From Octopus vulgaris (Eukaryota): 64,000 bases of DNA. This document shows positions 11,492 through 56,917 of the stretch, one piece after another. Location of the stretch: contig OX597822.1 of NCBI GenBank assembly GCA_951406725.2, positions 89,962,001-90,026,000 on the forward strand. The letters are read 5' to 3'. Each line of letters begins with the position of its first letter. Position 1 is the first letter of the stretch. The position numbers and the translations under genes are program-made. The notes below the pieces were generated by a model. That model did no database searches. It saw only the letters and a program-made list of their open reading frames with translations, and was not told the DNA's origin.

Positions 11492-11597
11492 TCAATCCTT
11501 AATTATCGATCCTTCTTCATTGAATTGGCCAGTAGATGTTGACTTGTATTCATCTAAACTGTCCTTTTCACTTGCCTCAGTACCATCGACTTCAGTT
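11492..11597 (-). CDS. L1CAM/neuroglian-like gene, terminal coding exon E
   Basis: Acceptor ttttcatatacag. Translates TEVDGTEASEKDSLDEYKSTSTGQFNEEGSIIKD*, resembling the L1-family tail DSL.DY...GQFNEDGSFIGQY but stopping before FIGQY. Confidence 0.88.
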
Positions 11598-11778
11598 CTG
11601 TATATGAAAAAAAAAATTTTTAAATATAGTAAAAATGAAACATTTTGTCGACACATTATTGAATATGATTAACATTAGATTATAGAAACCAGAATTTATT
11701 ATAGAAATGTCAAATCAAAATAAACCCAAAAGTCAATTCTCAAAACTAAAATCTTTGATATGCTTCATTCCATAACTG

Positions 11779-11866
11779 CCATTTCTGAAGAGTGCAAGAT
11801 TACATAATTGGACTGTTACTTAACATTCTGTTGAACACCTAGTGTGAAACTGATTGGTAAGATTGG
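11779..11866 (+). ncRNA. Decayed hammerhead-like motif with long loop II (pLTR fragment in the last intron of the L1-like gene)
   Basis: ccauuu-CUGAAGA-GUGCAAG...CUAGUGU-GAAA-CUGAUUGG-UA-agauugg. The stems rely on several G-U pairs. Confidence 0.5.
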
Positions 11867-12099
11867 CCATAATGGATATATAATACTGTATACTTCAACT
11901 AATATACCCACTCTACTGACTAATGTACAAGTGCTTTTTTTCCTGATATTGATGATGATGCTGATGAGGATAGAACAATTATGAGTATTAATGTGTGTAT
12001 GTGCGTATGTGTATGATTATATACATGTGATGCATTTATTAACATAAAGTGAGTGTGTAATGGATTCTTAGATGGCTATATATATATATATATATATAA

Positions 12100-12350
12100 A
12101 TCACCCATGCCAGTATCATATAAGAAGCACCCATTCCAGTGCCATGTAATTACACCCATGCCAGTGCCACATAAAAAGCACCCACCACACTCTGTATAGT
12201 GGTTTGCATTAGGAAGGGCATCCAGCTGTAGAGACCAAACCAAATGAGACTGGAATCTGTTGCAACTCCCTTGCATGCTAGTTCTGGTCAAACCGTCCAA
12301 CACATACCAGTATGGAAAATGGATGTTAAAAGATGAATGATGATGATGAT
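12100..12350 (+). mobile_element. Short 3'-end copy of the RTE LINE
   Basis: aggaagggcatccagctgtag...ggatgttaa followed by (GAT)n. Confidence 0.8.
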
Positions 12351-12379
12351 AGAACAATCAAAAATACAAAATATAGAGA

Positions 12380-13175
12380 AAAAACAAGAAAGACAACAAA
12401 AAGTCAAAAGGATGGAAAAAAGAGTGGTTTTAACATTTTGAGCAATGGCTTTTCATCAGAAAAAGTCCAAAAAGGAAAAAAAAATGTTCAGAAGTATATG
12501 TGTCATTACATAGTGGAAAAATAATTGACCTAAAGTGGAGAGGGGTAGAGAAAGTTGTTTTTGAAGGCAGGAGAGTGCATAAATAGCCAGTGTATGTGTG
12601 TCTGTGTGTTTATGTTTATGTGAGTGATGTGTGTGTGTGTGTGTGAGGTAGTGGAGCAGACAGGTTAATAGCAGTAGTTAGATTTGGTGATCAAGAGGCA
12701 AGTTGACGCATGTGTGAGTGCATCAGTGTTGCTGTGTGTGTAAATATGTGTTTGTGTGTGTACATGAGTGCATATGGATGCATGTATGGGTGTGTATGTA
12801 TATTTGTATTTATGTGTTTTTGTATGTATGTGTGTGTATCAATGCAGGTGAAGAGTTTTTGTATATGCTAGGTTATGGAAACGTGTGTGTGTGTGTGCAT
12901 GCGCCAGATAGATATGTAGTATGCAGAGCAGATGTTGAAGAGTGAAGATGTAATGCTGTTCTTGGTGAAGCCTAATGGTAGGGGTTCCATGATGCCAGGC
13001 CAGACTGAAGACAGTAAAGTGTTCAGTGGTGTGGTTGGTAGAGCAAAGATGATTGGCGGTGAGAGTACTTTTATGGAGGCAGATATCTAATAGATGTTTG
13101 GTAAATCTGTCAACTAGATAATGGCCAGACTAACCAACACATAATGAGTCAAAGAGTGCATTTGAGGTAATAGAT
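12380..13175 (-). mobile_element. Degenerate Penelope-like element (GIY-YIG remnant, CA-rich UTR, hammerhead)
   Basis: Minus-strand 12920-13170 reads ..VG*SGHYLVDRFTKHLLDI..RLHQEQHYIFTLQ, homologous to the C-terminus of the 20577-21353 ORF. Confidence 0.75.
12428..12464 (-). ncRNA. Decayed minimal hammerhead motif
   Basis: uuuu-CUGAUGA-AAAGC(cauu)GCUC-AAAA-UGUU-aaaa, at the 3' end of the PLE relic. Confidence 0.55.
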
Positions 13176-13349
13176 AATGACAGAAGAGATACAAGATAAG
13201 AGTGTGTACAGGTACGTGTTTGTGTGCATGTATGTGTGCATGCACGTATATAGGTACATGTATATGAGAATATGTTTGTATATATGTATGTTTGTAAAAA
13301 TTTACATGCTTAAAGTTATCTACATCTATCTAAATCAGTACATGATTTT

Positions 13350-13588
13350 GTATGCCAGTGGTACGTAAAAAGCACCAATCTGATCGTGGCTGTTGCCAGC
13401 CTCGCCTGGCACGTAAAAAGCACCCACTACACTCACAGAGTGGTTGATGTTAGGAAGGGTATCCAGCTGTAGAAACTCTGCCACATCAGACTGGAGCCTG
13501 GTGCAGCCTTCTAGCTTCCCAGATCCCGGTCGAACCATACAACACATGCTAGCATGGAGAACGGATGTTAAACGATGATGATGATGAT
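13350..13588 (+). mobile_element. Short 3'-end copy of the RTE LINE
   Basis: Same 3' UTR and (GAT)n tail as 18780-18980. Confidence 0.85.
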
Positions 13589-13700
13589 TATGAGTATTAA
13601 TGTGTGTATGTGCGTGCATGCACGTGTATGTGCGCATGTGTATGATTATATACATGTGATGCATTTATTAACATAAAGTGAGTGTGTAATGCATACTTAC

Positions 13701-13740
13701 TTCTGTTCTTCTTCATCATTAGAAAGGCAATCATCTTTCA
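13701..13740 (-). CDS. L1CAM/neuroglian-like gene, exon D: 40-nt cytoplasmic exon
   Basis: Acceptor tcttatcttatcag, donor gtaagt, phase 1 in and phase 2 out, which bridges exons C and E in frame. Translates VKDDCLSNDEEEQ(K). Confidence 0.8.
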
Positions 13741-14309
13741 CTGATAAGATAAGAAAAATAGAGGACATTGTTATTACAGAATTCTAAAATATTCATTAAT
13801 TTAAACTAACAATAATTCTAAGTATGATGATTCAGTGCACAAAAACTGTGCACAAAGTTCAAGGATTTGAAGAGTGTGGAACAAATTCTAAGCCACTATT
13901 GCTCTCAAGTCTACTCTGACTCAAACTAGCAGCACCTGTTAGGGTTTCAGCTATGGGTAAACTAATATGTGAATCCGTGGGAGTGAAGTGATGGACCTCC
14001 AGTTCCATTTAGAACTTCGTTCTAGAAGATAAACTTGTATAAAAAATCTGAAGTGCAGTTTGGTTCTGGTCGTCTCAACCTGTTGTGCCACTGACTAAAT
14101 AGCCAATTGTACTGGAATGTAAGTTCAGTGCTGTGTATGCTTTAACCATTCAAAACAAATTCATGCTTGTTGGATTCTTGGAGTGTTTGCACAAGTTTAG
14201 GAAAAGGTTTTACTCAGTCATGAGTTGACTACCACCATATGTGTGTGTGTGTAGGACCTCGTTTGACCCTACCTGTTTGAATTTGAAACCAAATCTAGAA
14301 ATTCTCCCT

Positions 14310-15307
14310 AGTCATATGACCTATTGTCTTCTGTGATGTGATCTTTGCAGTGTGGGGTTGCAAATTGTCCTGATGAAACATCACACCTTTTCGATTCACT
14401 AAAGCGGGTCTTTTTTTTTCAAAGCTTGGTTCAAATGCTCTAATTACTGACAGTAGACTTGAGCATTGATTGTTGCATTAGGTGGTAACAATTCAAAGTG
14501 AATTACTCCTTTGCAATCCCACCAGATAGAGAGAAGAACCTTTTTCCCATGAGGTTCCCTTCTTGGTTGTGGTTGAGCTCTTTACCAAGTCACTGTTTAC
14601 AATGTTTAACATTTCGATAGAAGATCCATTTTTCGTTACCAGTCACAAGTCTATCCAAAAAGGGTGAAATGAGTTTGCGAGAATGGAGAGAAGAGCAGAT
14701 GTCAACTTGGGATTTGCAGTAGCTTTCGGACAATTCATGAGGCACCCATTTTCCAAGTTTAGGAACCTTTTCAAGTTGTCGAAGATGATAATGAACAGTT
14801 CTATGGTTTGAACTAAGCTTTATTGCCAAATCTTCAACTGATAATGAGGATTTTTTTCAAGTAATAATTCAAGGAGCTTATCATCAAACTCAACTGGACA
14901 CCCTGTTCAATCTTCATTTTCATCAAGGCTGAAATCTCCACTTCTGAATTTTGCAACCCATCTTTTGCAAGTTCTTTCATTCAAATGTTCTTTCCCATAA
15001 ACAGAGTGTATGTTTCAAGTTGCTTCGGCTGCAGAGTTTCTTGTTTCCTTTTTTGTATTCAAAAAGCATTATGTACTTCAGATGTTCTTTGGATATGTCC
15101 ATGTTAGAAAGGGTTTTAAATACACCCTGACAACTTTGTTCCATACAATGGCACCACATCACAAGAAAAGAATGCTTTACAGCAGTATTCCCCAACAATC
15201 TATCACATACCTAACAAATGATGGTACCTGAACTCAGAATATAAAAGTCTGTAACTAAATACTATAAGTTATTTTATCCAATGCACAACTGATTCTGATA
15301 CAATCTA
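14310..15307 (-). mobile_element. Degenerate mariner transposon
   Basis: KLGKWVPHELSE and LDRLVTGNEKWIFY (D,D34D first-Asp region); N-terminal EHLKYIMLFEYKKG. Confidence 0.9.
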
Positions 15308-15667
15308 TGTTGATATAATAATTACAGAGTAATGAATACCAGAATTAGTAGAACACTCAACAACATGCTTAGCAGTATTTAGTTACATCTCTTTATATCT
15401 TAAGTTCAAGTACCACCAGGATCAGGTTTCTGTTACATTGTATAAAATACTCAGAGATACTGAATTTTGTCTTTATAATCTTATAATCTTATCCCCAGGT
15501 CTTAGTGTAATATCAATAATAGCATTAATGCTTGAGATAAATAAATGCTGGCTTCTTTTGTGGTGTTATGAACTATGTTTTTATGTCACTGAAATGGGAT
15601 GTTCAATGTTTATAGGTAAAGAAATAATTTCATAGATATTACAAAACAGAAAAAAAGAAAAACTTAC

Positions 15668-15793
15668 CATAGTATTTGCTGCCTCTATCACACTTGATGA
15701 TACAAACAAGGATGAGAATTAGAAGAAGCACACAAATAGCAATCATCATCACCACAAACCAAGTAGTTTGAAGAAAATCCAAATCCATTTCAC
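15668..15793 (-). CDS. L1CAM/neuroglian-like gene, exon C: transmembrane helix and juxtamembrane motif
   Basis: Acceptor tttcaaag, donor gtaagt, 126 nt. Translates GEMDLDFLQTTWFVVMMIAICVLLLILILVCIIKCDRGSKYY(V), matching the L1-family pattern WF..MM....CII...RGGKY.V. Confidence 0.92.
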
Positions 15794-16059
15794 CTTTGAA
15801 ATAGATACAAACAAATAAAATAGTCTTTAGCAACTAAAATCTCTTTTGCTTTTATAATAGAATTAATGATTCAATGTTCTTGAAAGTTTTTACCCAAAAC
15901 AGGTAAAATAATCCATCAGTTACAGGATATTGTTTAATTCTCTAAATTACATGGCTTCGAAAGATCTGAATGTGAGCATAATGTCTAAAGTCGATTAGAT
16001 TCTGCAAAAAGACATTAAGAAGACAAAGACATCAATGTTTCAAGTATCTTATCTCATTT

Positions 16060-16500
16060 ATGAGGGTGGGCTGAAAAGCTCATAGGTTGACTATGAAGAA
16101 GTGATGATACAGCTGTAAAACCTTGCATGCATTAATTTCAACTCCTCTAATTAATAACTGCATTCTTTCTTTCTTTCTAGGTGAACTGATATCTGACTGT
16201 TCAAAGAAAACTTCAAAAGTAACTAGTAGTGACTTCTCTTCAGTAGTCAACAAAATTTGACATCGTGGTGTTATCAAATACCTGCAGGGAAAGCATTTAG
16301 CCCCCAAGGGCATTCATGCTGACATTAGAGGATGACACTTCAGCTTTAGCAACTTCAAACGTGGGCAGTTGAATTTAAGAGGGGAAGAGAGAATCTTAAA
16401 GATAACCCAGCATATGGATGTCCTGCAATTATCACCACTAAGGAAAACATTGATTGCGATCATCACATAGTGATGGATGACAGGTGATTGACTACATAGA
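16060..16500 (+). mobile_element. 5' part of a mariner element
   Basis: TIR-like start tatgagggtgggctgaaaag, and transposase N-terminal remnants (HRGVIKYL..K.L.PK.IH.D; EFKRGRE.L.D). Confidence 0.65.
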
Positions 16501-16584
16501 GAAAAGGAAATATATATAGATATATATATATATATACATACATATACATACATACATATACACATGTGTATATATATATATATA

Positions 16585-18947
16585 CACCAAAGAGCTGAGG
16601 TATTTCGGATTGCCAGTGTGTCAGAGAAAATAGTGATGTTACAGGAGAGAAATGTGTCTGCATGGATGATGGGGCACTTGCTTTTACTGTTAGTGAAAAG
16701 AAAGAGGCTTGGAGAAGCCATTATGAAAGACTGCTGAATGAGGAGAATGAATGGGAGGAGGAGAGCCTGCCAAATGTTGACCCAGTAGAGGGACCAGCCA
16801 CCCGAATAGAGAGCTCCCTTGTAGTTAAGGCAATTAAGGATATGAAACCAGGTAAAGCCCCCGGCCCATCAGGAATCACTGCTGAGATGCTTAAAACAGC
16901 TGGCTATGTGGGCTATGGCCTAGTCACCTGCATTGTAAACCAGGTAGTTCATAATGGAGTCATACCCAATGACTGGCGTAGCAGCACCATAGTCAACTGC
17001 TACAAGGGTAAGGGTGATGCTCTAGATAGAAATAACTACAGGGGTATCAAACTGTTGGATCAGGTGATGAAGATCACAGAGAGGGTCATAACCCATCACA
17101 TTAGGGAGAGAATTTGCTTAGATGAAATGCAGTTCGGTTTTGTGCCGGGTAGAAGCACCACTGATGCTATATTCCTGGTCCGACAACTGCAGGAGAAGTA
17201 CCTAGCTAAAGATAAACCCCTCTACAGAGCTTTTGTGGACTTGGAGAAAGCCTTTGACAGGGTTCCCCCGTTCCCTTATCTGGTGGTCGATGCGGAAACT
17301 GGAGATTGACGAATGGCTAATAAGGGCTGTACAGGCTCTATACAGAGAGGCTGTCAGCAAGGTTAGGATTGGCAACGAATATAGTGAAGAATTCCGGGTA
17401 GAAGTAGGTGTGCACCAAGGCTCAGCCCTCAGTCCCTTTTTATTCATCATAGTCCTCCAGGCAATAACAGAGGAATTCAAAACAGGATGCCCCTGGGAGC
17501 TCCTCTATGCTGATGACCTGGCTCTCATAGCAGAATCACTACCGGAACTAGAAAAGAAATTTCAGGTGTGGAAGCAAGGGTTAGAATCAAAGGGCCTTAG
17601 AGTAAATGTAGCAAAGACCAAAGTTATAGTAAGCAGAAAGGCGAACTCAGCACACACCCCCTCGGGCAGGTGGCCCTGCTCGATCTGTAGGAAAGGTGTA
17701 GGTAGAAACTCCATAAGATGCACCCAATGTAAGCTATGGACGCACAAGAGGTGCAGCAACATTAAAGGGAAATTAACAGATAAGATAGCTTTCATGTGCG
17801 GCAGATGCACAGGGACAATAGACACCACAGACACTCAGAAAACAGATTCCATCACACTCCAGGGAGAGAAACTAGAAGTAGTTGATAGTTTCCGCTACCT
17901 GGGTGACCAAGTTAGTAGTGGAGGTGGATGCACAGAGAGTATCACCACTAGAATACGAATAGCCTTGGCAAAGTTCAGAAAGCTCCTACCCCTACTGGCG
18001 ACAAAGGGTCTCTCCCTCAGAGTGAAAGGTAGATTGTATGATGCATGTGTGCGAACTGCCATGCTTCACGGTAGTGAAACATGGGCTGTGACTGCAGAGG
18101 ACATGCGTAGACTTGAAAGAAATGAAGCTAGCATGATCCACTGGATGTGTAATGTCAGTGTGCACACACGACAGAGTGTAAGCACCCTGAGAGAAATGCT
18201 GGATATAAGAAGCATCAGATGTGGTGTGCAAGAGCGACTCTTGCGATGGTATGGTCATGTGCTGCGGATGGATGAGGAGAGATGTGTGAAGAAGTGCCAC
18301 TCCCAAACAGTTGAAGGTATCAGGGGGAGAGGTAGACCCAGGAAGACATGGGATGAGGTAGTCAAGCATGACCTCAGAGCGTTGGGCCTCACTGAGGCAA
18401 TGGCGAAGGACTGCAAAGACCCGGGCTGCTTCCTACATCAGTTCCGCATAGCCCCTGCCCATTCAAAGTACCCCGGATCCCAGAACGTCCCACTGTGCTT
18501 GAGGAGACCTGTTGAGTCAAGTACATGAACATGAACGTCAAAATAAATATCAATGGAAATAGTAGTTGTGATGCCTGTGCCGGTGGCACATAAAAAGAAC
18601 TATCCGAACATGGCCGATGCCAGCGCCGCCCCGACTGGCTTCTGTGCCAGTGGCACATAAAAAGCACCATCCGAACGTGGCTGATGCCAGCGCCGCCCCG
18701 ACTGGCTCCTGTGCCGGTGGCACATAAAAAGCTCCAACCGACTGTGACCGATGCCGCCCCCCCCCCTGGCACCTGTGCAGGTGGCACATAAAAAGCACCC
18801 ACTACACTCGCGGAGTGGTTGGCGTTAGGAAGGGCATCCAGCCGTAGAAACTCTGCCAGATCAGACTGGAGCCTGGAGCAGCCCCTGGCTTCCCAGACCC
18901 CGGTCGAACCGTCCAACCCGTGCTAGCGCGGAAACCGGATGTTAAAC

Positions 18948-18980
<33 letters not shown>
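16585..18980 (+). mobile_element. RTE-clade LINE, 5'-truncated, near-intact reverse transcriptase
   Basis: KAPGPSG, NYRGIKLL, QFGFVPGRSTTDAIF, FVDLEKAFDRV, GVHQGSALSP, YADD, FRYLG and GRPRKTW motifs. One frameshift near 17270; (GAT)n tail. Confidence 0.95.
18560..18800 (+). repeat. Four approximately 60-70 bp tandem units in the RTE 3' UTR
   Basis: Repeated tgtgccggtggcacataaaaagcac unit containing a TGTGCC/GGCACA hairpin. Confidence 0.85.
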
Positions 18981-18983
<3 letters not shown>

Positions 18984-19838: not shown

Positions 19839-19860
19839 ATATATATATCTGTGGCCATTG

Positions 19861-20072: not shown

Positions 20073-21353
20073 TCCCGACCCCACCCCCAGCACCCCCACC
20101 CTTCTCCGTTTGGCTGAGCTCGTCCTCACCCTCAATTGCTTCACGTTCGCCGGGGAAACGTACCAACAGGTGTCCGGGGTCGCGATGGGAACTAGGATGG
20201 GCCCCAATTTCGCCAATCTCTTTCTTGGCTACATTGAGGCCCAAGTGTTCTCCCAGTTCTCTGGGCCGACCCCGAACTATACGGTCGCTATATCGACGAC
20301 TGTGTAGGTGCCACCTCCCTTTCCCGGGAACGTCTCGGCCAATTCATCTCTTTCCTTTCCAACTTTCACCCCTCTCTTCAATTCACCTCCACCATCTCCA
20401 ACACCTCTGTCAACTTCCTTGACATCTCTCTCCGCATCGATCACCCCTCCAGCTCTCTCACCACCACCGCCTTCTTTAAACCTACGGATTCCCACCTCTA
20501 TCTCAACTTCTCTTCCTCCCACCCCTTCCACACCAAACGAGCCATCCCCTACTCCCAGTTCCTCCGCCTCCGACGTTTGTGCAGCCGCGACCAGGATTTC
20601 GAGACCCAATCTCAATACCTGGCCCGCATGTTCAGACTCCGAGGTTACCCACCCACACTCCTCTCTGATGCCCTCACCCGCGCCCGTCGCATCGACCGCA
20701 CTACCGCCTTGTCTCCTTCCCCCCGCCCACCCCCCAACCGCACCCCCTTCCCCCTCCTTTTCCACCCCTCTACCCTACCCCTTCGTCGCAAGATACTACG
20801 TGCCTTCCGTCGCCTCCAGCTTGATCCCACCACCCGCCCCATTTTCCCTAACCCACCCCTGTCCTCTTTCAAACGAGCCCGCAATCTGCGTGACCTCCTG
20901 GTCCACAGCACCCTCTCCCCTTCCCCCTCAGCCCCACACGGATCATTCCCTTGCTCTAGATCCCGCTGCAACACTTGCCCCTTCATCACCAACACCACCG
21001 CTGTCACCGGCTCCAACCTGCATACTGTACGCATTAGGCACTCTTTTACGTGCACCTCGTCTGGCCTTATTTACTGCATTAAATGCAACCTATGCGGGAT
21101 GCTGTATGTAGGTCAGACGGGACGCCGGTTGTCCGACCGTTTCACTGAACACTTGAGGGACGTTCGCCTACACTCTTTTTCTCCCGTCGCACGCCACTTC
21201 CGCTCGGCCGGCCATTCCCGAGATGACATCTCAGTGTTTGGTCTCGCCCCCCACAATGGTCGCCCACTTTCCAGGCTCCACTTGGAGCAACGCTACATCT
21301 TCACCCTACAAACTACCACCCCACACGGACTTAACACAGCCCCCTCCTCTTGA
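20071..21353 (+). CDS. Penelope RT and GIY-YIG endonuclease ORF (partial, one frameshift in the C-run near 20270)
   Basis: Joins ORF 20029-20307 to the frame of ORF 20577-21353. Confidence 0.85.
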
Positions 21354-26372: not shown

Positions 26373-26534
26373 CTGATGTTAAAGGAAGAAGTAATGTTCT
26401 CCAGTCACTCGGAAATTCCAGTCCATTCTGTACCATAACTACTCGGAATTCATACCAAAGGCCAGATGTTAAATTTGATAAAACCTGCCATTGTTGCGTG
26501 GTAAACTCCAAAGTATTTTCTGTGAAATTGTCAC
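26373..26534 (-). CDS. L1CAM/neuroglian-like gene, exon B: second half of the FN3 domain
   Basis: Acceptor attttag, donor gtaagt, 162 nt, phase 1/1. Translates GDNFTENTLEFTTQQWQVLSNLTSGLWYEFRVVMVQNGLEFPSDWRTLLLPLTSG, with the FN3 'L..G..YEFRV' signature. Confidence 0.88.
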
Positions 26535-32264: not shown

Positions 32265-33754
32265 GGACAAAGAAAAAAACAAGGAGAGAAAAAAAATGTG
32301 TGTAGTGGCTACCAATCTATCATGGCGACTGCTGGACAGAAGGGTCACACAGCAGAGCGAAGAAGTAGAGGAGATAACAAAGTAAAGATGACCCCCAAAA
32401 CGAAGGTGCTTGTGTGTATAAAAGAGTATGCATGTGCGTGTGAAAGAGGGCTGCTGGTCTTGACGCGTGTGTGTGTATATGTATAAGTGTGAAAATGTGG
32501 GGATGGGAATTGGTCAGTGCTGGTGTGTGGGTGGTGTGTTGTGATGTGATGTGTAATGTTGTATGGTGTAGTGTGGTGTGGTATGATGTTGTTGGGAGGT
32601 GGGGAGGTGAGAGTGAGGAAAGCACAGGTGGGGTGTAGGTTAGGCTGAGGGCTGGGGTAGAGGTGGGGTATGTGGGTAGGCAGAGGTTGAGGGTAGAGGT
32701 GGGGTTTGTAGGTAGGCAGAGGGTGTAAAAGGATGGGATGGGGGTGGGAAGGATAGGGAAGGTGGAGTAGGAATGTGTAGGGGTGGGGTGGGCTTATGGG
32801 CGAGGGTTGACAATGAAGGGGAAGGGGAAGGTGGATATGTGAGAAGAGAGAGAGAGAGAGAAGAGTGAAAAAAGAGAGTAAGAGAGAAAGAGAGAGTGAA
32901 AGAGTAAGAGAGAAGAGAATAAGAGAGAAGAGAGAAAAAGAGAAGAGAGAAAGAGAGTAAGAGAGAAGAGAGAAAGAGAGTAAGGGTGAAGAGAAGTAAG
33001 AGTTGGAGCAAGAGAGGAGAGGTGGGTGGGAGGAAGTAGGAGGGAGGGAGAGAGAGGCAAAGGGAGGAGGTTCGATGAAGAGGGGAGGAGAGTTGAGCCC
33101 AAATCGCATAAAGGAGCGAAGAGAGAAGATTAATCCCTGTTCACAGCGCAAACGGGAGTCAGGATGGCCTATGTGCAAGGACAATCCAAACACCGACAGG
33201 TGTTGCAAAGAGTGACCAGTAGAGCGGAAATTGCATGAGACTGGGGTGTCATTGCCAAGGCGGATGTCTCGGAGGTGTTCCATGAACCGGTCAGCCAAGC
33301 AGTGTCCCGTTTGTCCGATGTACAGAGAGAGCAGGAGATGCAATAGATGATATTGGTAGAGGTGCAGGTGAAGGAGTCGGTGATGCGATAGGGTCGATGA
33401 TGGGTGCCGGTGAGGAGGGTGGTGTTGGAGAGGTAAGGGCAAGTGCAGCAGCGTGGGTGGGAGCAAGGAAACGAGCCAGGTTGGGAGGTAGGGTTGGGGA
33501 AGAAGCTGTGGAGCAAGAGGTATCGTAGATCGTGGGCTCGTTTGAAGGAGGCGAGGGGTCAGTTAGGGAAGATGTGTGAAGTGGATGGGTCGGACTGGAG
33601 ATGCCGGAAAGCTTGGAGAATGGTGCGTGGGTGGCAGGTGAGGGGAAAGGGGGGCGGGAGACTGCAGGGTGAATTCGGGGGGAGAGAGCAGATGCACAGT
33701 CCACGGAACGTGCTCTGGCAAAGGTGGCGTGGATAGTGGTGAGGGGAAATCTAT

Positions 33755-33985
33755 GCGGCGAGCTGGCAGAAACGTTAGCATGTCGGGCGAAATGCTTAGT
33801 GGTATTTCGTCTGCTGTTACGTTGTGAGTTCAAATTCCGCCGAGGTCGACTTTACCTTTCATCCTTTCGGGGTCGATAAATCAAGTACCAGTTACGCACT
33901 GGGGTCGATGTAATCGACTTAATACCTATGTCTGTCCTTGTTTGTCCCCTCTGTGTTTGGCCCCTTGTGGGTAGTAAAGAAATAA
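33755..33985 (+). mobile_element. SINE family B inserted in the Penelope ORF
   Basis: ggcgagctggcagaa...gagttcaaattc head. Imperfect target duplication gtgaggggaaatctatg / gtgagggggatatccatg. Confidence 0.85.
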
Positions 33986-34922
33986 GTGAGGGGATATCCA
34001 TGTAGGATGAAGTGGCGAGCCATGAGTTGAGACTGAGTCTCAAAGTCATGGTCGTCAGTGCAAAGCCTGTGCAGACAGAGGAATTAGGAATAGGGGATGG
34101 AAAGATTAGTGTGTTTGGGTAGGAAGAGGAGAAGTTGAGGTATGAGTGTGAGTCTGTGTGTTTGTAGTGGATGGAGGTGGTAAGAGTAGAATGATGAATG
34201 CTGACCGAAATGTCACGAAAGGAGACACAGGTGTCAGAGATAGTGCAGGAGAAGTGGAGGGCAGGATGGAAAGATTTGACAAAAGAGAGGAAGGAGTCTA
34301 GCTGTTCGCGGAAGAGTGAGGTGGCACCGATACAGTTGTCAATATAATGGCCATATAGTTTGGGAGTTGGACCAGTGAAACTTGAGAATATTTGGGCCTC
34401 AACATAGCCAACGAACAGGTTTGCATAGTTGGGGCCCATTCTCGTTCCCATGGCCACTCCCAAATTGCTTGTAGAAATCGCCCGCAAACGAGAAGCAGTT
34501 GAGTGAGAGGACAAGTTTGGCCAGACGAACGAGTGTGGAGGTGTCGGGTTGGGGATTGGGTTGGAGGTCCAGGAAGTGTTTCAGTGCACGCTGCCCCTCG
34601 TGGTGAGGGATCACAGTGTAAAGGCTCTGGATGTCCAGAGTGAAGAGAAGTTTAGAGGGGCCAGGAGGGAAGGAGAAAGAGTTGAATAGATGAAAAGCAT
34701 GGTTGGTGTCAAGGATGTGAGAAGGGAGAGAACCCACTAGGGGGCAAGGACACGGTCGAGATATTTAGAGATAAGCTCGGTGGAGCGGTTACAGGCAGAG
34801 ACGATGGGCGGCCAGGGTTGTGGAGGAGACGGGAGGACGAGATGAGGTCATGGATGGTAGAGGAGACCGTCTGTTGGTAGCTGGGGGTGGTGTCATGAAG
34901 TTGGTGGAGAGCTTTGGATATA

Positions 34923-44019: not shown

Positions 44020-45406
44020 TGTGTGCATTATGTGGTCGGTTGAGCTGAAAATATGCACACCTATGTTAAAAGTACTGGCGAGTTTGCATGGCAACTATTT
44101 TTTTCCTCAAATGAAAGGCGTGACCTCTAGGACAAAATTCCTCATCTTATAAAATGTGGCCCAAGTAGACCTGAATGAAATCGGGTTATATTAACCAAAA
44201 TGTGAAAATGGGTCAAAATGGGTCTGGAAGGGGATTAAAATTTACAGGAGCATGTGTTTAGGAATTCTGTTACATCAAGCTAAAAAATTTGCGCCAGCCT
44301 TTAAATCTTCAATGTGTTGCCTTCCATGATGAAGAAGTTTTGAATGCTTGCCATGGTGAGTCTACTGTCGTGAGAAAGAATCACTTCAAAACTTGGTGTT
44401 TAGGAATTTTCTTTTACATCAAGTTCAAAATTTTATGCCAGCCGTTAAACTGCCACAACGTTGCTGTCCATCGTTAAGAAGTTTTGAATGCCAGCCATGC
44501 TGAGTCTACTATCCTCAGATTCTATCCTTTCAAACTTTGGTTTCCAATATGTTTTTATTTTTATTCAGCTCGCAAGTTCGTCTGTCCCTTTTAAATGTTA
44601 CTGTTTTGAAGCAGACCTTTCTTTTGTCACTGCCTGATATTTATGATTGATCTTTCAAAATATTTCTTTCTCAGCTTACTCCAGATCTTTTGTTGTTTGT
44701 AAATGGGAGATAGATAGATAGAGAGTAAGAGAAAGCGAGGGAGAGTCCGAGAGAAAGGAAGAGTAAGAGAGTGGGAAAGTGAGCCAGCCTTTAAATCATC
44801 AATGTGTTGCTATCCGTCATGATGAAGTTTTGAATGCCTGCCATGGTGAGTCTACTGTCGTAAGAAAGAATCACTTCAAAAATTGGTGTTTAGGAATTTT
44901 CTTTTACATCAAGTTCAAAATTTTACGCCAGCTGTTAAACTGCCACAACGTTGCTGTCCGTTGTTAAGAAGTTTTGAATAGCAGCCATGGTGAGTCTACT
45001 ATCCTCAGATTCTATCCCTTCAAACTTTGGTTTCCAATATTTTTTTAATTTTTATTCAGCTTGCAAGTTCGTCTGTCCCTTTTAAATGTTTTGCTGTTCG
45101 CCTTGAAGCAGACCTTTCCGTTGTCATTGCCTGATATTTATGATTGATCTTTCAAAATATTTTGTTTCTCAACTTACTCAAGATCTTTTGTTGTTTATAA
45201 ATGGGAAAGAAATAGATAGAGAAAGATAGAGAGTAAGAGAAAGCGAGGGAGAGTCAGAGAGAAAGGAAGAGTAAGAGAGTGAGGAAATGAGAGAGAAAGG
45301 AAAGAGAAACAAAGAGGGAGAATGTGGTGATAAGAAACAGAAAGGAAGCAAGAGAAAGTAACAACCACACTCTCACCCGTGCGTAGAGTGGGTCACCTTA
45401 AGCTAG
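44020..45406 (+). mobile_element. Non-autonomous Helitron-like element with an internal approximately 490-bp tandem duplication
   Basis: Ends with hairpin cacccgtgcgtagagtgggt and CTAG|T. Segment 44290-44780 is repeated at 44780-45290. Confidence 0.6.
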
Positions 45407-46843: not shown

Positions 46844-47279
46844 TATATATAAATTAATAATATAAGTTTAAATAATAGGTGTGTATATATTTGAACCATT
46901 TTCAATTTTTAATTCTAGTAGTCATAGTGTGTACTAGCATTATGTATACAAGTTAGCATGAAGTTTTTTTTAGTATATATTACTTAATTAGAATAAAATT
47001 TAACTTAGATGTTTATTAAATAAATAATTTAATTTAATGTATATAGATTAAATTATAGTATTTTAGTTTTCACCTTATGTATATTTTGTATTTTATATAT
47101 ATATATATATTTATTTGTTTTAAATATTTTAAGTACTTGTATTTTAATTTTCTAGTAATGATATATTATAGTTTGTCATTCTTTTCTTATATAAGTTAAA
47201 ATCTATTTTCATAGATATAATAAATATTTATACCATAATATATTTAAGATATTTCGTGTTTGTATTTTATGATACATAT

Positions 47280-47940
47280 CAAGAAATCCTCTTGCGAGCG
47301 TGACCTAGGCATCACTGTCAGCAGTGATTTGCGTTGGACAAAGCATATCTCTAAAATTGTCAAGAAGGCTGAGGGTGTCTTGGCATCACTCAGCAAGACT
47401 TTTGTTAGCCGCTCTCCAGCCATCTATTTAAAACTGTATACAGCTATGGTACGACCACACTTGGAATTCGCATCATCAGTTTGGAAACCCTATCTTGCTC
47501 AGAACATTGACCTCCTGGAATCTGTCCAGAGACGTGCAACCAAACGCATACCCTCCATCAGACACCTACCATATTCTGAGTGCCTTGTTTCCCTGGGCAT
47601 GGATTCACTGAAGCTCCGGCGTCTGGCAACGGACTTGGTAAACACCCACAAGGTTATCAACCACCTCACCAACAACAACACTGAACACCTTTTTGATCTC
47701 CATGTGTCTAACACACGTGGACATGCCTACAAAGTCAGAAAACAGCACAGCTCCCATGACTTTCGGAAACATCTTTTCACGCTCAGGGTTGCTGAAGCGT
47801 GGAACAAACTGCCTGCGTCAGTTGTTGACTGCCATGACACTGCATCTTTAAGGCCCTCATGCTTTCCGAAATCCGCCAAAACTACACCTGATTATATATA
47901 CACTTTAGATGAGTTGTAGTGCACCTGAGCACTGTACACA
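47280..47940 (+). mobile_element. CR1-group LINE 3' end
   Basis: ERDLGI, VRPHLEFASSVWKPY, LESVQRRATK, TRGH and RVAEAWNKLP motifs; short UTR and (ATT)n tail. Confidence 0.9.
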
Positions 47941-48409: not shown

Positions 48410-48473
<64 letters not shown>

Positions 48474-48509: not shown

Positions 48510-50278
48510 ATTGGAATAGTACGGTAGACAAACCCATTAGAGCAAAGAAACAGGCCTGGAAAGCCTGGCGGGATGGGGGTAGCAGGGAACTGTACCAGGT
48601 AGCCAAAACGGAGGCTGGGCAGCAGGTATACATAGCCAAGGGCGAAGCAGAAAAGAAGTTTGCCAATGTCCAGCGACGTGAGGACCAAAGAACTGAGGTA
48701 TTTCGGATTGCTAGACACTGTGTGAGAGAATATTGTGATGTCACAGGAGAGAAATGCATCTGCATGGATGATGGTGCACTTGCTTTCAATGTTTCTGAAA
48801 AGAAAGAGGCTCGGAGAAGCCATTATGAAAGACTGCTGAATGTGGAGAATGAATGGGAGGAGGAGAGCCTGCCAAATGTTGACCCAGTAGAGGGACCAGC
48901 TATCCCAATAGACAGCTCCCTAGTAGATAAAGCAATTAAGGGTATGAAGCCAAGAAAAGCCCCCCGGCCTATCTAGAATCACTGATGAGATGCTTAAAAC
49001 ATCTGGTGGTGTGGGCTATGGCCTAGTCACCCGCATTGTAAACCAGGTAGTTCATAATGGAGTCATACCCAATGACTGGTGTAGCAGCACCATAGTCAAC
49101 TGCTACAAGGGTAAAGGTGATGCTCTAGATAGAAATAACTACAGGGGTATCAAACTGCTGGATTAAGCGATGAAGGTCACAGAGTGGGTCATAGTCTAAC
49201 TCATTAGGGAGAGAGTCTGCTTAGATGAGATGCAGCTCGGTTTTGTTCTGGGTAGAAGCACCACTGATGCCATATTCCTGGTTCAACAACTGCAGAAGAA
49301 ATACTTAGCTAAAGATAAACCCCTCTACTTAGCTTTTGTGGACTTGGAGAAAGCCTTTGACAGGGTCCCCCAATCCCTTATCTGGCGAACAATGTGGAAA
49401 CTGGAGATAGACGACTGGTTAATAAGGGCTGTACAGGCCGTTAGTAAGGTTAGGATTGGCAACGAATATAGTGAGGAATTCCGGGTAGAAGTAGGGGTCC
49501 ACCAAGGTTCAGCCCTCAGTCCTCTTCTATTCATCATAGTCCTCCAGGCAATAACAGAGGAATTCAAGATGGGTTGCCCCTGGGAGCCCCTCTATGCTGA
49601 ACATAAGAAGCATCGGATGTGGCATGCAAGAGAGACGTTTGTGCTGGTATGGTCATGTACTACGGATGGATGAGGAGAGCTGTGTGAAGAAGTGCCACTC
49701 CCACACAGTTGAAGGAATCCGGGAGAGAGGTAGACTCAGGAAGACATGGGACAAGGTGGTCAAGCATGACCTTCGAATGTTGGGCCTCACAGACCGAGAT
49801 CTCTGGAGATATGCTGTGACTGTGAAGACCTGACAAATAATGTGACTTCATGGCTGTTTCCTGCACCAGTTTCACATAGCAGCCCCAGCCCATCCAAAGT
49901 ACCTTGGATTGCAGAACGGCCTGCTGTGCTTACCTTGGATCATAGGGTGACCTGCTGTGCTTGAGGAGACTTATTGAGTCGAGTACATCAACATCAAAAT
50001 AAAAATAAAATGGAAATTGTAGTTGTGATACCTGTGCTGGTGGCACGCAAAAAGCACCATCCGAATGTAGCCAATGCCAGCATTGCCTTGACTGGCTTCC
50101 ATGCCAGTGGCACGTAAAAAGCACCCACGGAGTGGTTGGCGTTAGGAAGGGCATCCAGCTGTAGAAACACTGCCAGATGAGATTGGAGCCTAGTGCAGCT
50201 TCCTGGCTTCTCAGACCCTGGTCGAACCGTCCAACCCATGCTAGCATGGAAAACAGATGTTAATGATGATGATGATGA
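48510..50278 (+). mobile_element. RTE LINE copy with stop codons and an internal deletion
   Basis: Colinear with 16585-18980, but jumps from WEPLYA to NIRSI near 49598; (GAT)n tail. Confidence 0.92.
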
Positions 50279-50337
50279 TTATATATATATATAAAGATTT
50301 ACCTATAGACATATATATACACACATATATGTGTTAA

Positions 50338-50372
<35 letters not shown>

Positions 50373-50384
50373 CTGCTGGTTTAT

Positions 50385-52360
50385 CTGAACCATCAGTGAA
50401 ATTCATCTAATAATTTCTTGTGAAAATAACACTAAATTTGCCAATTTCTCAAATATCACTCACAACTTAGTTGCAAATCTATATTACCCTTTTCATAAAC
50501 CCAATGAATTTACCACAATATGGCAACGTCGTATCCCTGCACTTAATAACATTGTAACTTATCTCTATTAGAATTTTAGGCTTATCAAATAAAGATATCT
50601 TTAACAATCATACCCCATATTATAACCCAGCTTTCCAGATCAGTGGTTTCCCCTGCACTCTAAGCCCTCAAAGGCCAGGAACCAGGAAAACCTATGGTTC
50701 TTGCAACCTTTCTCCCTTCTAGTTTCTTTAAAATTCTGTACTCAATTTCTCACCGCAACATAGCATCACCCTATCTTCAATAAATCATCTATTAAAATCT
50801 CCTACTCCACCATGCCTAACATAGGATCCATAATCGCCTCCTGTAGTAGATGCAAACTTCACCACCTGTCTTTGGGCCCTATGATCCATGCACCTGAACC
50901 CCATCTGATTCAATACCTGCCCCAATGATACTCTCCATACTACTACTGGTATTGTCACATATAACAGCAGTGATGCACCCTCCAAATCTAACATCAGTAG
51001 TAATAATACCTTTAGTGTTTCTTCAGAGGTAATTGATCATACAAACCAGACCTTTCCAAGGATCAGTTTCAACTCTAGTGCAAGGAAGGAAACTTGCAAT
51101 TTCTGGGTGTCTCAACTCTGACTTCTTGGATGTTTCTATCTATGCAAAAATGTAACCTACATTCCTATAGGCTGTACATTTGCTGCACTGTTGATTTCAA
51201 GCACTGCTACTGAGCATGAATGAATTCTGTCTCCAATCAAACTTCTAAATTATCTACCTCTCTAGCAACTCACATACACAACCTCAAGTTCCAAAACATC
51301 CCCAGTACCCTATCCTGGTCCATTATCTGTAGGGTTCCACTGTACAACCACTAGCCTTGGAGTTTGTAAACTGTTTAAAAGAGAATCACTTGCCATCCTT
51401 TGCAACCACAACCCTACCATTACTTAATAAATTCTCGGATATAATACTTTCATGTAAGTACAAATTCTACTCATCGTTTTCCCATTATGTAAAATCTATG
51501 TAATTCCCAAACTACAATATTATCTTAAGTTACTCTAGTAATATATCCCTTCTATTATATATTTCTTCTTATGATTACCTTTGCAAATCCCTTTTACCCA
51601 GCACATCTCCCTTTACAGCTACCCCATCCTCATACTTTCAATTCCTTTCCCATCTCCACTTTGCTTCTTCAACCAGAACTGCTTAACACCACCACCCCTT
51701 GCCTTTGCTATCAACCTATCCTTCTTATTTATTCTCATACTTCAATACTTTTCTTCCACTACCAACCAACCTATGGTCATTCTTTGAATCCACCTTTCGC
51801 CACCCTACTGGCATCTACTAGATCTTTTCCCTCCCTTCTCTCACTATTCCAATTCCCCTTCTCAGTTCGATAGCCCCACCATCTCTATTAACATATTTTG
51901 TCAAACCCAACAATGCTACCCCTTCCACTCATCTCTCCACTACTTCTTTCAATACCCTGTTCACTCACCTTTCCTTCTTTCTAATCTGACTCTCTTATCG
52001 CTTCTTGCTCTTCCTTGCTATAACACGCTTGACACCCCCATCAAACTGACTACTTCTTCCCTCCACTTCTGCTTGCCTTCCTTTTCACTCACTCCACCTT
52101 TAAATTTTCTTGCATTATGGCTTGAAATGTTAGATATCTATCTCTCCACCCTGAAGATGGAAATTGGATCTACCTAATGTTTATATGCTTCCACTACTGG
52201 TTGTATATCCTTGACTTTTTGTGAAATACATCTGTCAATACTATGAAGTAATTCCAAGGCCCCAGAAACAGCTGTCAGACCTATAACACCATACTTTCTC
52301 CCCTTCATTTTCTGTGTCTTTGTACAATGAATAAGTTTGCTCTGTTAATACATAAATATC
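50385..52360 (+). mobile_element. Highly degenerate Penelope-like element of a second type (possibly Naiad-like)
   Basis: IKISYSTMPNIGSII at about 50790-50835; LGVCKL..RESLAI and LNK.S.I remnants at about 51355-51450; pyrimidine-rich UTR; terminal hammerhead. Confidence 0.65.
52146..52280 (+). ncRNA. Hammerhead-like motif with about 100-nt stem-loop II
   Basis: CUGAAGA-UGG(aaa)UUGGA...UCCAA(ggcc)CCA-GAAA-CAGCUG-UC, with palindromic ACAGCUGU. Stem I is poor. Confidence 0.6.
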
Positions 52361-52364
52361 TATA

Positions 52365-52558
52365 TGGCGAGCTGGCAGAAACGCTAGCATGCCGACCGAA
52401 ATGCTAGCAGTATTTTGTCTGTCTTTACGTTCTGAGTTCAAATTCTGCTGAGGTTGACTTTGCCTTTCATGCTTTCGGGGTCGATAAATTAAGTACTGGT
52501 TGTGTACCGGGGTCAATCTGATCAACTGGCCCCGTCCCCAAAACTTTTGGGCCTTGAG
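52365..52558 (+). mobile_element. SINE family B
   Basis: Same head and core as 33755. Confidence 0.85.
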
Positions 52559-53149
52559 TAACTTCTGATTTCTCATTATTTTCTCCCTGTCTGTTTCAAA
52601 CCATGAAGCTGCAAGTATTGCTTCATCTTTTGAAGTAAAAACAAGCCAGCACTGTTGTTGAAGTTGAGAGAGTTTGAAACATAGTCAGGAATTGGGTAAT
52701 TTTTCTCAAGGAATTTTTTCTTAACTTTGAACCAGTCGTAACTGAGGTTGCTAATAAAATATCTGGATAAGTTTTGGCATATAACAATCAATATTCTTTC
52801 CTCTATAGGATTCCAAGTCGATTTTTTATGCACACAAGTGTCTAATTTGATAATATTTAATTTAAATAAGTGACGTCTAAACTGGGGCAAAATGAATCAT
52901 GACTAATTTCAATAATTTCTTCTTTTTAACTTCATGGTATGTAAATATATCATGAAGAGAGCCATTCCAGCAGATTGTGAAGAAGCTATAGAGAATATTA
53001 TATGTGGAATTTTCAGATTTAGTTGAATTTGATATATGTCACTTTTCCATGATCCTCTTTCAATTTGACCTAGATATTTTTAATTTTTGTCATATTTCTG
53101 ATATCTAAGGATGAATACTGATGTTTTTATTTTTATTTTTTTAATTTTA

Positions 53150-53450
53150 TCTAGTTTCAGCTCACAAGCTGTGGCACCGCCATTCGGTGTTGCTACATGA
53201 TTTTACTTCACGAATGCTTTTTAGCAATTGCCATTTGGTGCATGAGAGAGTTCGATGCAGCTGCCCTCATCTGTACCTCCTGCCATGAAGTTGGTTCATC
53301 TGGGACACCTGACAGGAAGAGATCCAGTTTTATTTTAAAGACATCTGCATCCCATGCAGGTCTCTCAGGTCCTTCAGGAGGATATTGAAGAGCTGTGGAC
53401 CTCTGAAGCCCAGGCTACCACAGTATCTTGTCCTACATCTTGACAAATGC
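53150..53450 (-). mobile_element. CR1/L2-group LINE 3' fragment
   Basis: Homologous to 42320-42540 (GPQLFNILL..LRDL..FKIKLDLFLS.VPDEP). Confidence 0.7.
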
Positions 53451-54299
53451 ATTTCTGGAGAAACAAAGAAGCAAATTTACCTCATCTCACCCATTTTGCC
53501 CCAGCTAGTTTTGTCTTTTATATGCTCAAAAAGAACGGGGATAATTTTCTGAGATAGTGTTCAGATTATGAAAAATGTTTTTAATGCATTTAGAGAAGGT
53601 CATTTGCTTAAACTGATATAATTTTTGTATGGTAGTGAATATTTGCAAAAATATTGTTTTCTCAAAGTCAAAAGTAAATCATACTCATGTCCCCTGTATA
53701 TATTTTTTTGATGGTTTTTGATGGTTTTAAATGATTCTAACCATTGAAACCATGCACGGGCAGCCTGTCTTGAGATATGACTTGTCATCAGGTGGACCGT
53801 AGTTTTCCCATGACAAATGAAAACCATCGGAAAAATAACTTGTTTTTTAAGGTAAACTACCCATTCAAAGTGAGATGGATGTAAATAGTAAAAGCTTACC
53901 TGAAAGTTAGCCGTATCAGAAAAACAGCCGAACCTGTTATAATCGGTATAAAAGTTATAGAAAACAGAATTAAATGGCATGAATTTACTATTATATTCGT
54001 CTATGAAGGAGAAATTTATGTGAATCCTCTATTGTTTTCAGTATTTTAAATGAATCTGGCCATCAAAACCATCGGAAATCATTCGTTCTTTCGGTAAGCC
54101 ACATTTTCAAAGTAATATTGGGTTGGTGCATAATTATTGCGGCTTTTTATCAACAAATTTTATTCAACAAAAGCAATAATGATATTTAACAAAAACATCT
54201 TTAAATGACGGTCTGACCATCTGCAAAGCAAATGGGAAGCAGTAATTGAAGTAGATGGTGAATATGCTCCGGAAAAAAATCATCTAAAGATGTTTTTGT

Positions 54300-55632
54300 T
54301 ACAAGTTGTGGCAAGACTTCTGCCCGTCCCCCACCCAAAAAAAGCCACCCGCTTAAAAAAATTTTTTAGAGACAACCCCCACCCCTTTTGGCTACGGGGA
54401 ATACGAATCTGCAAAAAAATTGGTTTTTTAAATCACCACTCCCATTTCCTTCATTTTTCAGAAATTTTTTCAAAATATGCAGAAAAATACGGAGATTATG
54501 ATTCTGAAAAAAAAATTTCCAAAAAGTTTTGTAAAATTTTTGTAAAGATTTTTTTCTTTTTTTCTAAATATGCAGAAAAATACGGACATTATGATTCGGA
54601 CAAAAAATTAAAAACATTTCTGTACTTACAGTTAGGGCCAGGGTTTTAGGGTTAGGGTTAGTGTTGGGGTAAAAAGTCAAAATTAAAGAATTGGGGGGGG
54701 AAATTTAACTGCTGATTTTTGGCAATTTTCCAGAACCTCTGTATCCGAAAATAGGGGTTTTTGGCAAAAGATTTTTTTTAAATAAGCAAATTTGGGAGAA
54801 AACAGTGGGGGGACGAGTGGAAGTCTTTCCGAGTTAGGGTTAGTGTTGGGGAAAAAGTCAAAATTTGAAAATGTTTTTTTGGGGGTGGGTGGGATTTAAC
54901 AATGCCGATTTTTGGCAATTTACCTGGGCCTCCGTATCCGAAAACAGGGGTTTTTGGCAAAAACGATTTTTAAAAAATAAACAAGTTTGGGAGAAAATGG
55001 GAGGTGGGCGGAAGTCTTTCCAAATTCGGAATTCCATATGGAGAGCAGATTTTGAAAAATAGATTTGGTGGCGATCCTTCGGTATAAGTACACACGTGAC
55101 TTTGTTTACATTTCTGAAGATAACAGAAACCCTTTTCTCTCACCCCTAACCTTAACCCTAACCTCCCATATATATAAAAAACAACAACACTTTCTTGAAA
55201 TGTATCCGGTACTTATACCGAAGTTACGCCGATGTGGTAATTTACCATAGATATTTTTGTTTACAAAAATTTCAATTGTAACCCCTCTCCCACCTTTCGG
55301 ATTCCTCATCTCACCCTTCGTTGACGACATTCCGGATGTTTTTAAATTCATCTGCTCATTTACGCATGCGTAAAAACTTTCCGAGGCAGCAGACGAAATG
55401 ATGGAGGCCTCAACGCAATCGTCCCACATTCTAGAAATAACAGCTAAAGCTCTGAAAAAGATCTTTTTCCAAAATTTCATTTTTTAAAACTCCTTATCTG
55501 TCTTTCAGAATGACACCAGCCCAAAAGAAACAAGAAATTCATCAGCATATAAGTCCCATCCCACTCCAGCAAACTTTTGTCGAAATATTAGGTAAATTTT
55601 TGGCACCTCTTTCTTAATTAACGAGAAGGCAA
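54300..55632. mobile_element. Helentron/DINE-1-like non-autonomous element with TTAGGG-like tracts
   Basis: Starts with acaag and ends in the imperfect palindrome cctctttcttaattaacgagaagg plus an A-run. Has internal approximately 185-bp tandem units and follows a mariner-like end at 54117. Confidence 0.45.
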
Positions 55633-56910
55633 AATAGACTTTTCACTCATTTGCTTTGCAAGAAAAGAGCACATAAGAAATGAGTTATTAGATATGTCAA
55701 GCTAAGTGAAAATCGACGAAAGGAAAACTAATGCTAAAGTTTATGAAACTGAAAGGAAAACCCTAAAATAATAATTTTTTATGTTTACAATTCACCCAAT
55801 ACTAGGCCCCCGTGCAATACGTCCCCTACAAAGGTCGAGATCACATCACATAAGAACATTGCGACACAATTTCTTCACTGCAAATGGTCCTGCACATTTC
55901 AATGCCAAAGGAAATCAAAGTAGAAAAAGATCCCACAGCTTTCAAACGGTGCCGGGACAAATTCCTCCAGGAAATACCGGATAAACCGCCTACATCGGGA
56001 TACGTCTAAACCAACTCTCTGCTTGAGTGGTCCATGGTGTCCCGAAATAACTAACTAAAAGACTTTTCCAGGTGGTGTTATTGAGTTAGCCATGACCTGG
56101 ACCAATAATGGCCGAAACCAATCTATATATATATAAACCTTACTGAATAATTTCTTTTACATCTGCTACAAACAACAACTCTATATAATCACAAATTCCC
56201 ATCTCAAACACTAATGCAAAATGGAAGAGTAACAACAAAACAATTAGAAGCCACAGCAAAAATTCCGATTGTATCAAAACTTATTCCCTATTACAAACAA
56301 GGTGGTCGCAGTGTAGTGTAAAAAAGAAAATTTCTTTCACGATCACTAAACTTCTAACTAAAAGCATGTATAATAAACCGTTTACTGTACAGAAAATTAA
56401 GCAAAAAATATATCTCAAGAAATTTAGCTTCCACCTAAGAAAATTATTTTTAGATCATAAAACCATTTGAATTTAGCAATTAGTAACTAACTAATATAAA
56501 ACATAAGATTTGTAACGGCTTCTCTAATAAAAAGTTCATAATAAAGTTTTTCATTAATTTATTACACGCTAGCTAATGAGAAGAGACAAAATTAAGAGGA
56601 GCTACTATTCGAAAATTATTACAATAAAGAATTTCAGCGCTACATAAAAAGCATTTATCGTGTAATAATGAGAATATAAAGAATTAGACAACTTTGTTAT
56701 AAGCAAAATATTAACACGCTGAAAACAAATCAAGAGTTACAAAAGAAAACGTTTCAACGAACAGAACATTAACAGAAAATGAAATTTTGTTAGGAAAAAG
56801 TCAACATCCCACTCATAAGTTGCATTATTATTAATTTAGAAGTTATAACTGAAAAAATTGCTTTAATATGAAGCAAATTAAATCACAGGCAAGCTGAAAT
56901 AGCGATTTAC

Positions 56911-56917
56911 CTGCCAT
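56911..56917 (-). CDS. Candidate start-codon exon end (ATG GCA G|gtaaat) for the L1-like gene
   Basis: gcgaaATGG is a good Kozak context, followed by a CAG|gtaaat donor. Phase 1 matches exon A, and it lies in unique, CpG-richer DNA downstream of the neighbouring gene. Speculative. Confidence 0.3.

Follow-up and report, generated by a model that had tools for sequence, protein, structure and literature searches.

A window of 64,000 nucleotides of Octopus vulgaris DNA (GCA_951406725.2, contig OX597822.1, forward-strand positions 89,962,001 to 90,026,000; window coordinates are used below) carries on its minus strand a short gene whose sequence marks it as a partial copy, at a locus of its own, of the 3′ part of neuroglian, the cephalopod L1-family gene. 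Its product comprises one fibronectin type III (FN3) domain, a transmembrane (TM) helix, and a tail, with no immunoglobulin (Ig) domain and no signal peptide. We draw this conclusion because full-length neuroglian lies on other scaffolds and the short gene forms a clade with cephalopod neuroglian, and we consider it very probable that it is a real, separate gene. From cnidarians to humans, L1 proteins are conserved as long Ig/FN3 adhesion molecules, whose short membrane-bound forms are known to result from cleavage.

The gene has six exons, all on the minus strand. Exon A (28873–28751, 123 nt; AG acceptor, GT donor) encodes the first half of the FN3 domain with two N-glycosylation sequons, and exon B (26534–26373, 162 nt) the second half with two more. 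Exon C (15793–15668, 126 nt) encodes a stalk, the 22-residue TM helix, and the start of the juxtamembrane tail, with an ERM-type motif and a new cysteine, while exon D (13740–13701, 40 nt) adds an acidic juxtamembrane segment with a second new cysteine. Exon E (11597–11492, 106 nt including TGA) holds a remnant of the ankyrin-binding region, recognized by Bravo_FIGEY and by alignment, and its stop precedes the position of the FIGQY tyrosine. Exons A–E total 557 nt in a single open frame with AG/GT boundaries throughout and phases of 1, 1, 1, and 2, which reproduces the exon count, total length, and open frame given in a preliminary description of this DNA. We also noted a second in-frame AG at 26519, 15 nt into exon B, the use of which would remove five residues and one sequon.

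The coding part of exon 1 (56968–56911) contains two in-frame ATGs, at 56968 (204 residues) and 56917 (187 residues), and a phase-1 donor, and encodes no hydrophobic core. The sequence ATG GCA G|gtaaat at 56917–56911 is in phase with exon A, and its donor (8/9 of the consensus) is the best among the six ATG-started, phase-1 candidates (four donors) with a donor of at least 7/9 between 28874 and 62768. Exon 1 also lies at the window's highest bin of observed/expected CpG (1.64 at 57001–57500; median 0.385 over 128 bins), and the CpG-rich stretch around it (56500–57500; 1.64 and 1.26 in its two bins) is likely the promoter of the short gene. Nearby, 59431–59390 (minus strand) resembles at 13/14 residues the first exon with which O. 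bimaculoides isoform X2 starts instead; the copy in the window has a stop, and GG replaces the GT donor.

Splicing 56968–56911 to exons A–E yields exactly P0001, a 204-residue protein annotated as 'neurofascin isoform X1' (Octopus vulgaris/O. sinensis). Two O. bimaculoides accessions give the same 204-residue protein with the same first exon, and the Argonauta hians ortholog (168 residues, E 3e-56) starts with M-A-A-P, the product of the ATG at 56917; the proposal in the preliminary description that ATG GCA G|gt forms the first exon thus agrees with the database models. A protein search with exon B returned P0001 as its single match, and the P0001 cluster has five members, all short (164–280 residues) and including O. 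bimaculoides forms, with fn3 and no Ig in the three scanned against Pfam. The Ig-less, signal-less form is annotated also in O. bimaculoides (92% identity) and A. hians (~55%), and orthologous short models with an open frame occur in four assemblies. NCBI X1/X2 isoforms normally require transcript support. No squid or cuttlefish ortholog surfaced in searches of which the first requires shared 5-mers and which cover those taxa to an uncertain extent, and no description of the short gene was found in the literature covered, which leaves out most subscription journals.

Full-length neuroglians of 1,230–1,295 residues were found by protein searches in O. bimaculoides, O. sinensis, A. hians, and a cuttlefish. 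In each of the three octopods, the full-length gene and the short gene occupy different scaffolds (127.5 Mb and 96.9 Mb, respectively, in O. bimaculoides, 135.9 Mb and 105.9 Mb in O. sinensis, and 26.5 Mb and 34.8 Mb in A. hians). The best L1-type full-length match of the short protein was Octopus neuroglian (32% identity over 218 columns, E 2e-29), one multi-FN3 protein scoring higher via summed repeats, and no full-length relative closer than neuroglian was found among 1.84 billion representatives. In trees built from the last FN3 together with the TM and tail, the short gene and coleoid neuroglian formed a clade supported at 95/93 with 29 rows and at 99/100 with 17 rows picked from those 29, as the preliminary description had anticipated in calling the gene a partial duplicate. 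The stem branch of the short gene is long (1.9–2.2 changes per column), and its placement relative to the coleoid neuroglians differs between the trees, being sister to all of them at 86/92 (29 rows) or nested within them at 46/51 (17 rows). The short gene is at least as old as the Octopus–Argonauta split, which is fossil-bounded at ~29 million years ago or more (PMC12682272).

Two other origins were considered. A retrocopy is ruled out by the six exons with introns. Gene fission, with the 666-residue 'neuroglian' LOC115210201 as the Ig half, was set aside, the listed relatives of that protein being from Lottia and Crassostrea, which suggests a separate molluscan family. LOC115210201 (A0A6P7S854), an Octopus 'neuroglian' in the supplement of PMC10142993, has a hydrophobic N-terminus and is represented in ink by one peptide.

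The gene appears complete as described. Pfam fn3 matched the whole short protein (E 5e-7) and Bravo_FIGEY matched exon E (E 9e-6), both above the cut-off. A profile of 35 full-length neuroglians, run against 2,697 six-frame segments of the window, matched exons A, B, C, and E only (independent E-values, iE, of 1.5e-14 to 1.2e-3); it revealed no further neuroglian exon and no Ig exon in the window, the next match having an iE of 6.9, and Pfam found no Ig domain in 4/4 short proteins. The absence of Ig or FN3 exons between 28873 and the stop of the upstream gene at 62769, reported earlier from inspection, is borne out by this profile. No hydrophobic first or symmetric exon was present among 11 candidates (best 8-residue mean 1.9), and none of six short-gene models has a hydrophobic N-terminus by hydropathy, used here in place of a dedicated signal-peptide predictor, in keeping with the earlier view that the protein lacks a signal peptide.

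The AlphaFold2 model of the short protein displays seven strands, one long helix, and a disordered tail (mean predicted local distance difference test score 71, with the FN3 and TM blocks mostly at 85–95). Its best Foldseek matches are FN3 domains, and both the single fn3 stretch seen by Pfam and the single seven-strand domain of the model indicate one FN3 domain; a PDB sequence search returned just a designed FN3 and one weak match. The TM segment is identical to that of O. sinensis neuroglian at 15/23 positions, with W126 invariant and C145 nearly invariant. All four N-glycosylation sequons are retained in Argonauta (probability 0.006–0.02 under a simple model), and one of them is missing from the three coleoid neuroglians compared. 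Subtracting the charge on the N side of the 22-residue TM from that on its C side gives +4, +4, and +1 in three orthologs. An N-out (type III) topology is probable, being favored by the four kept sequons, the charge bias, and the predicted intact FN3, and the hallmarks of type III proteins are present in the form of a single TM, positive C-side charge bias, and no signal peptide by hydropathy.

The tail has been remodelled. The motif EDGSFIGQY is kept in 35/35 full-length relatives; the short protein ends S-I-I-K-D-stop, and by alignment it does not contain the C-terminal PDZ-binding motif (S/T-x-V) of the L1 family. The Octopus tail retains positions matching neurofascin F1202, N1203, E1204, S1207, and I1209 (the F-N-E core being retained in Octopus only), while those matching D1205, F1208, G1210, and Y1212 are changed or absent. 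In the ankyrin complex, mutation of F1202 or E1204 costs 20- to 27-fold, and mutation of F1208 or I1209 little (PMC9396398); weak ankyrin binding that cannot be switched by phosphorylation is possible in Octopus. The Argonauta model ends before the ankyrin-binding region. With regard to the tail end itself, the frame stays open for 32 codons past the TGA of exon E. An unnamed 71-residue record, P0048, represents unspliced exon E from an octopus close to O. bimaculoides, and compared with 11494–11396 (minus strand) it has Trp at the stop position followed by 17 extra residues ending S-V-A, a discrepancy that might come from divergence between species or from RNA editing of UGA to UGG.

The juxtamembrane segment is the best conserved part within the short-gene lineage, with 21/25 residues identical to Argonauta versus 47/93 in FN3 (Fisher P 0.003), for a segment (148–172) whose bounds were drawn after the alignment had been viewed. 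Compared with neuroglian, 4/23 residues of this segment are identical, which is not significantly below FN3's identity (P 0.21). It contains two cysteines, in a place where only 1/35 neuroglians has any cysteine, and keeps G-x-K-Y-x-V with altered flanking basic residues. This element resembles KGGKYSV, the ezrin motif of L1 (PMC3737756). In flies, the action of the Nrg FERM site does not depend on FIGQY and probably involves Moesin (PMC4384726).

Across 158 columns common to all, identity of the short gene is 91.8% with O. bimaculoides and 54.4% with Argonauta, compared with 98.1% and 83.5%, respectively, for neuroglian in the same species pairs. Given these lower identities, constraint on the short gene is looser than on neuroglian (P 1e-7). 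Its substitutions are nonetheless more conservative than neutral, as 12/17 differences to O. bimaculoides are BLOSUM-positive compared to ~5.4 under neutral simulation (mean score P 0.004–0.005), and a stop was gained in 67–68% of neutral runs; these simulations (5,000 per setting) are a proxy for selection and differ from a ratio of nonsynonymous to synonymous rates (dN/dS).

The reading we favor, to which we give slightly less than an even chance, is of a separate octopod gene for a signal-less FN3-TM-tail protein with an N-out orientation, serving as a non-adhesive membrane adaptor via its juxtamembrane segment. A DNA-level duplication would have copied the last neuroglian exons, with the ATG coming from a short, newly acquired exon 1 at the CpG-rich promoter. 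The TM helix would then act as a reverse signal anchor, with the FN3 domain entering the lumen of the endoplasmic reticulum and becoming N-glycosylated, the juxtamembrane cysteines would probably be palmitoylated, and the R/K-G-S-K-Y-Y-V motif would bind a FERM protein such as moesin. Since the Ig domains, the FIGQY tyrosine, and the PDZ end are missing, neither trans adhesion nor phospho-switching on ankyrin would be expected; a cis partner or FN3 ligand would be linked to cortical actin. The FERM-adaptor role taken by itself is plausible, if a little more doubtful. In a complex prediction, the short protein (18–172) with O. sinensis neuroglian (955–1215) scored 0.01, from which no verdict follows.

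Several points weigh against this adaptor reading. The short gene evolves faster than neuroglian (86/153 versus 133/159 identical residues between O. sinensis and Argonauta), and the juxtamembrane comparison depends on the bounds mentioned above. In the flank, usually KRNRGGKY, two basic residues have given way to others, a change that could make FERM binding weaker. Concerning topology, one of the four sequons aligns with a one-column shift, sequons can be retained for structural reasons, and the charge bias in Argonauta is just the +1 noted. About 107–124 residues, including a foldable domain, must cross the membrane without a signal peptide, and type III ectodomains are typically short (<75 residues for gamma-secretase substrates; PMC13507816). 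Lastly, the exon 1–exon A junction rests on database models, one of which may itself derive from the window.

Rather unlikely, in our view, is an encoded decoy that competes with neuroglian for ankyrin or joins cis clusters as a dominant-negative form with no FIGQY phospho-off switch. The retained equivalents of F1202, N1203, E1204, S1207, and I1209 in the Octopus tail are in its favor, as are a distal tail identical at 29/32 positions between O. sinensis and O. bimaculoides, the neuroglian-like TM, and the action of fly Nrg in multimeric clusters (PMC4384726), but the equivalents of D1205, F1208, G1210, and Y1212 are changed or absent from an element kept throughout the full-length relatives, and overall identity to neuroglian is only the 32% given above. 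The preliminary description, which proposed a modulator or decoy resembling the membrane stub left by ectodomain shedding, overlooked two losses: the tail has neither the FIGQY tyrosine nor the PDZ end, and in the Argonauta model the ankyrin region is missing altogether, which makes it harder to see an ankyrin decoy as the original function. That reading is only partly supported. The short protein does resemble the cleavage products of L1CAM and SAX-7 (L1-80 and L1-32; SAX-7 60 and 28 kDa) in being a membrane-anchored C-terminal part without Ig domains (PMC9562852, bioRxiv 2021.01.25.428117), but those fragments are cut by proteases from a type I precursor and carry the native tail, whereas the short protein comes from a separate locus with its own start exon and has one whole FN3 and a remodelled tail. 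No fragment described in the available portions of these sources consists of one whole FN3 plus TM: the L1-32 stub is cut near the membrane, and FN3-cleaved forms (cut inside the third FN3) retain more than two FN3 domains (PMC9562852; bioRxiv 2021.01.25.428117).

Equally improbable is a new small receptor or co-receptor, in which the single FN3 would bind a secreted ligand or receptor and the tail would serve mainly for trafficking. An ESM Atlas feature search places clusters of vertebrate FNDC9 (0.97) and FNDC5 (0.95) first, and these proteins have the same size and architecture, a single FN3 with a TM and short tail. FNDC9, too, begins directly with its FN3, without a signal peptide. As the ancestry of the short gene is neuroglian, this likeness is likely convergent, and a Pfam scan of 24,736 models, a set that may lack PF28127, gave no match to PF28127 or PF16066. 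In C. elegans, the final pair of SAX-7 FN3 domains probably suffices for LECT-2 binding (PMC5079751), and the long stem followed by conservation fits a functional change. Counting against a receptor, FN3 is the less conserved part (the 47/93 to Argonauta given above), no FNDC9_C or other family domain was detected with Pfam, and four glycans would presumably mask much of the 90-residue domain.

Less likely still is a slowly decaying or mis-inserted duplicate under weak selection, its FN3 folding in the cytosol and the protein being inverted or degraded. The faster evolution is consistent with this, as are N-termini that vary between models (164, 199, 204, and 280 residues), C-termini that vary (shorter in Argonauta, 17 residues longer in P0048), and one ink proteome supplement with no peptide named neurofascin among the entries listed. 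Opposing it are a frame that has stayed open in four assemblies separated by a split of at least 29 million years (PMC12682272), the conservative substitutions and retained sequons, and the confident FN3 model. We consider it very improbable that a longer L1 gene ends in these exons, with its Ig exons unassembled or beyond the upstream neighbor, for although intron 1 is 28 kb of repeats, the window contains no N, the profile found no Ig or FN3 remnant, none of the 11 candidate exons is hydrophobic, no full-length relative is closer than neuroglian, the same short form is seen in four assemblies, and no longer protein carries exon B (weak evidence).

Returning to the short protein as a separate octopod paralog, its closest known counterpart, Octopus neuroglian (XP_052824013.1; O. 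sinensis neuroglian X2), shares with it the last FN3, the TM with W-F and the juxtamembrane Cys, K-Y-x-V, and the tail motifs D-S-L-x-x-Y and F-N-E-x-G-S. Compared to neuroglian, the short protein has one FN3, no signal peptide, Ig domains, FIGQY tyrosine, or PDZ end, a tail about half as long, two new cysteines, a faster rate, and another scaffold. Of the features that define the L1 family, it has the single TM with W-F and juxtamembrane Cys and descent from an L1 gene, and is without the six Ig domains, four to five FN3 domains, signal peptide, FIGQY, and PDZ end. The 'neurofascin isoform X1' under which it already stands in public databases is a misleading name and, given the differences in Ig domains, FN3 count, signal peptide, FIGQY, and PDZ end, the gene should not be filed as neurofascin or neuroglian. 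LAD-2 of C. elegans lacks FIGQY and acts as a co-receptor, but keeps an Ig ectodomain and signal peptide, unlike the octopus short protein; it is likewise a second L1 gene. Chelicerate sDscams (shortened Dscam) are likewise reduced paralogs, restricted to one lineage, of a long adhesion gene with Ig and FN3 domains, but keep three Ig and three FN3 domains and occur in arrays, whereas the octopus short gene is single and has no Ig (PMC10084454 for LAD-2 as a second L1 gene and for sDscams).

The window as a whole is AT-rich animal DNA full of repeats. Downstream of exon E lies the likely 3′ untranslated region (11491–11044, minus strand), with the first ATTAAA at 11397 and the first AATAAA at 11044. 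A search of sequencing runs listed no RNA source; the last-exon/3′ UTR stretch was present in 20 of 24 rows, 14 of which are RNA by guess only, and no weight is placed on them. Upstream, the last two exons of a neighboring minus-strand gene (62769–63133, stop at 62769) set the 5′ limit for any missing exons and match Ricin_B_lectin (Pfam E 6e-5, for the last exon, and 3e-3, both below the curated cut-off). This neighbor is likely a polypeptide GalNAc-transferase, the usual host of the ricin-type lectin domain, and it offers a synteny marker for ortholog searches. Broken retroelement frames at 16599–18525, 20238–21350, 33172–34764, 47248–47916, and 5334–6429 presumably represent RTE-type long interspersed nuclear element (LINE), Penelope-like, other LINE, and Gypsy-type integrase sequences, going by their motifs, and within intron 1, a 490-bp unit at 44293–45291 is present in two head-to-tail copies with 90% matches.

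A separately encoded paralog that is under selection and has neither Ig domains nor a signal peptide is a natural experiment, showing what remains for the last FN3, TM, and juxtamembrane tail to do once adhesion is gone. It is also a clear example of a gene born through partial duplication, its topology likely having shifted from type I to type III. In cephalopod expression studies, reads of the short gene could pass for neuroglian. In its boldest and rather speculative form, our proposal is that a dedicated octopod 'mini-L1', evolved from the last neuroglian exons, would be a type III glycoprotein in which the cortical anchoring of L1 is separated from adhesion. Its juxtamembrane code, with the cysteines, would be newly fixed, its ankyrin core in Octopus would have no tyrosine and could not be phospho-switched, and stop-codon recoding might extend it. 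If true, wiring that depends on neuroglian would be tuned by a neural innovation particular to this lineage.

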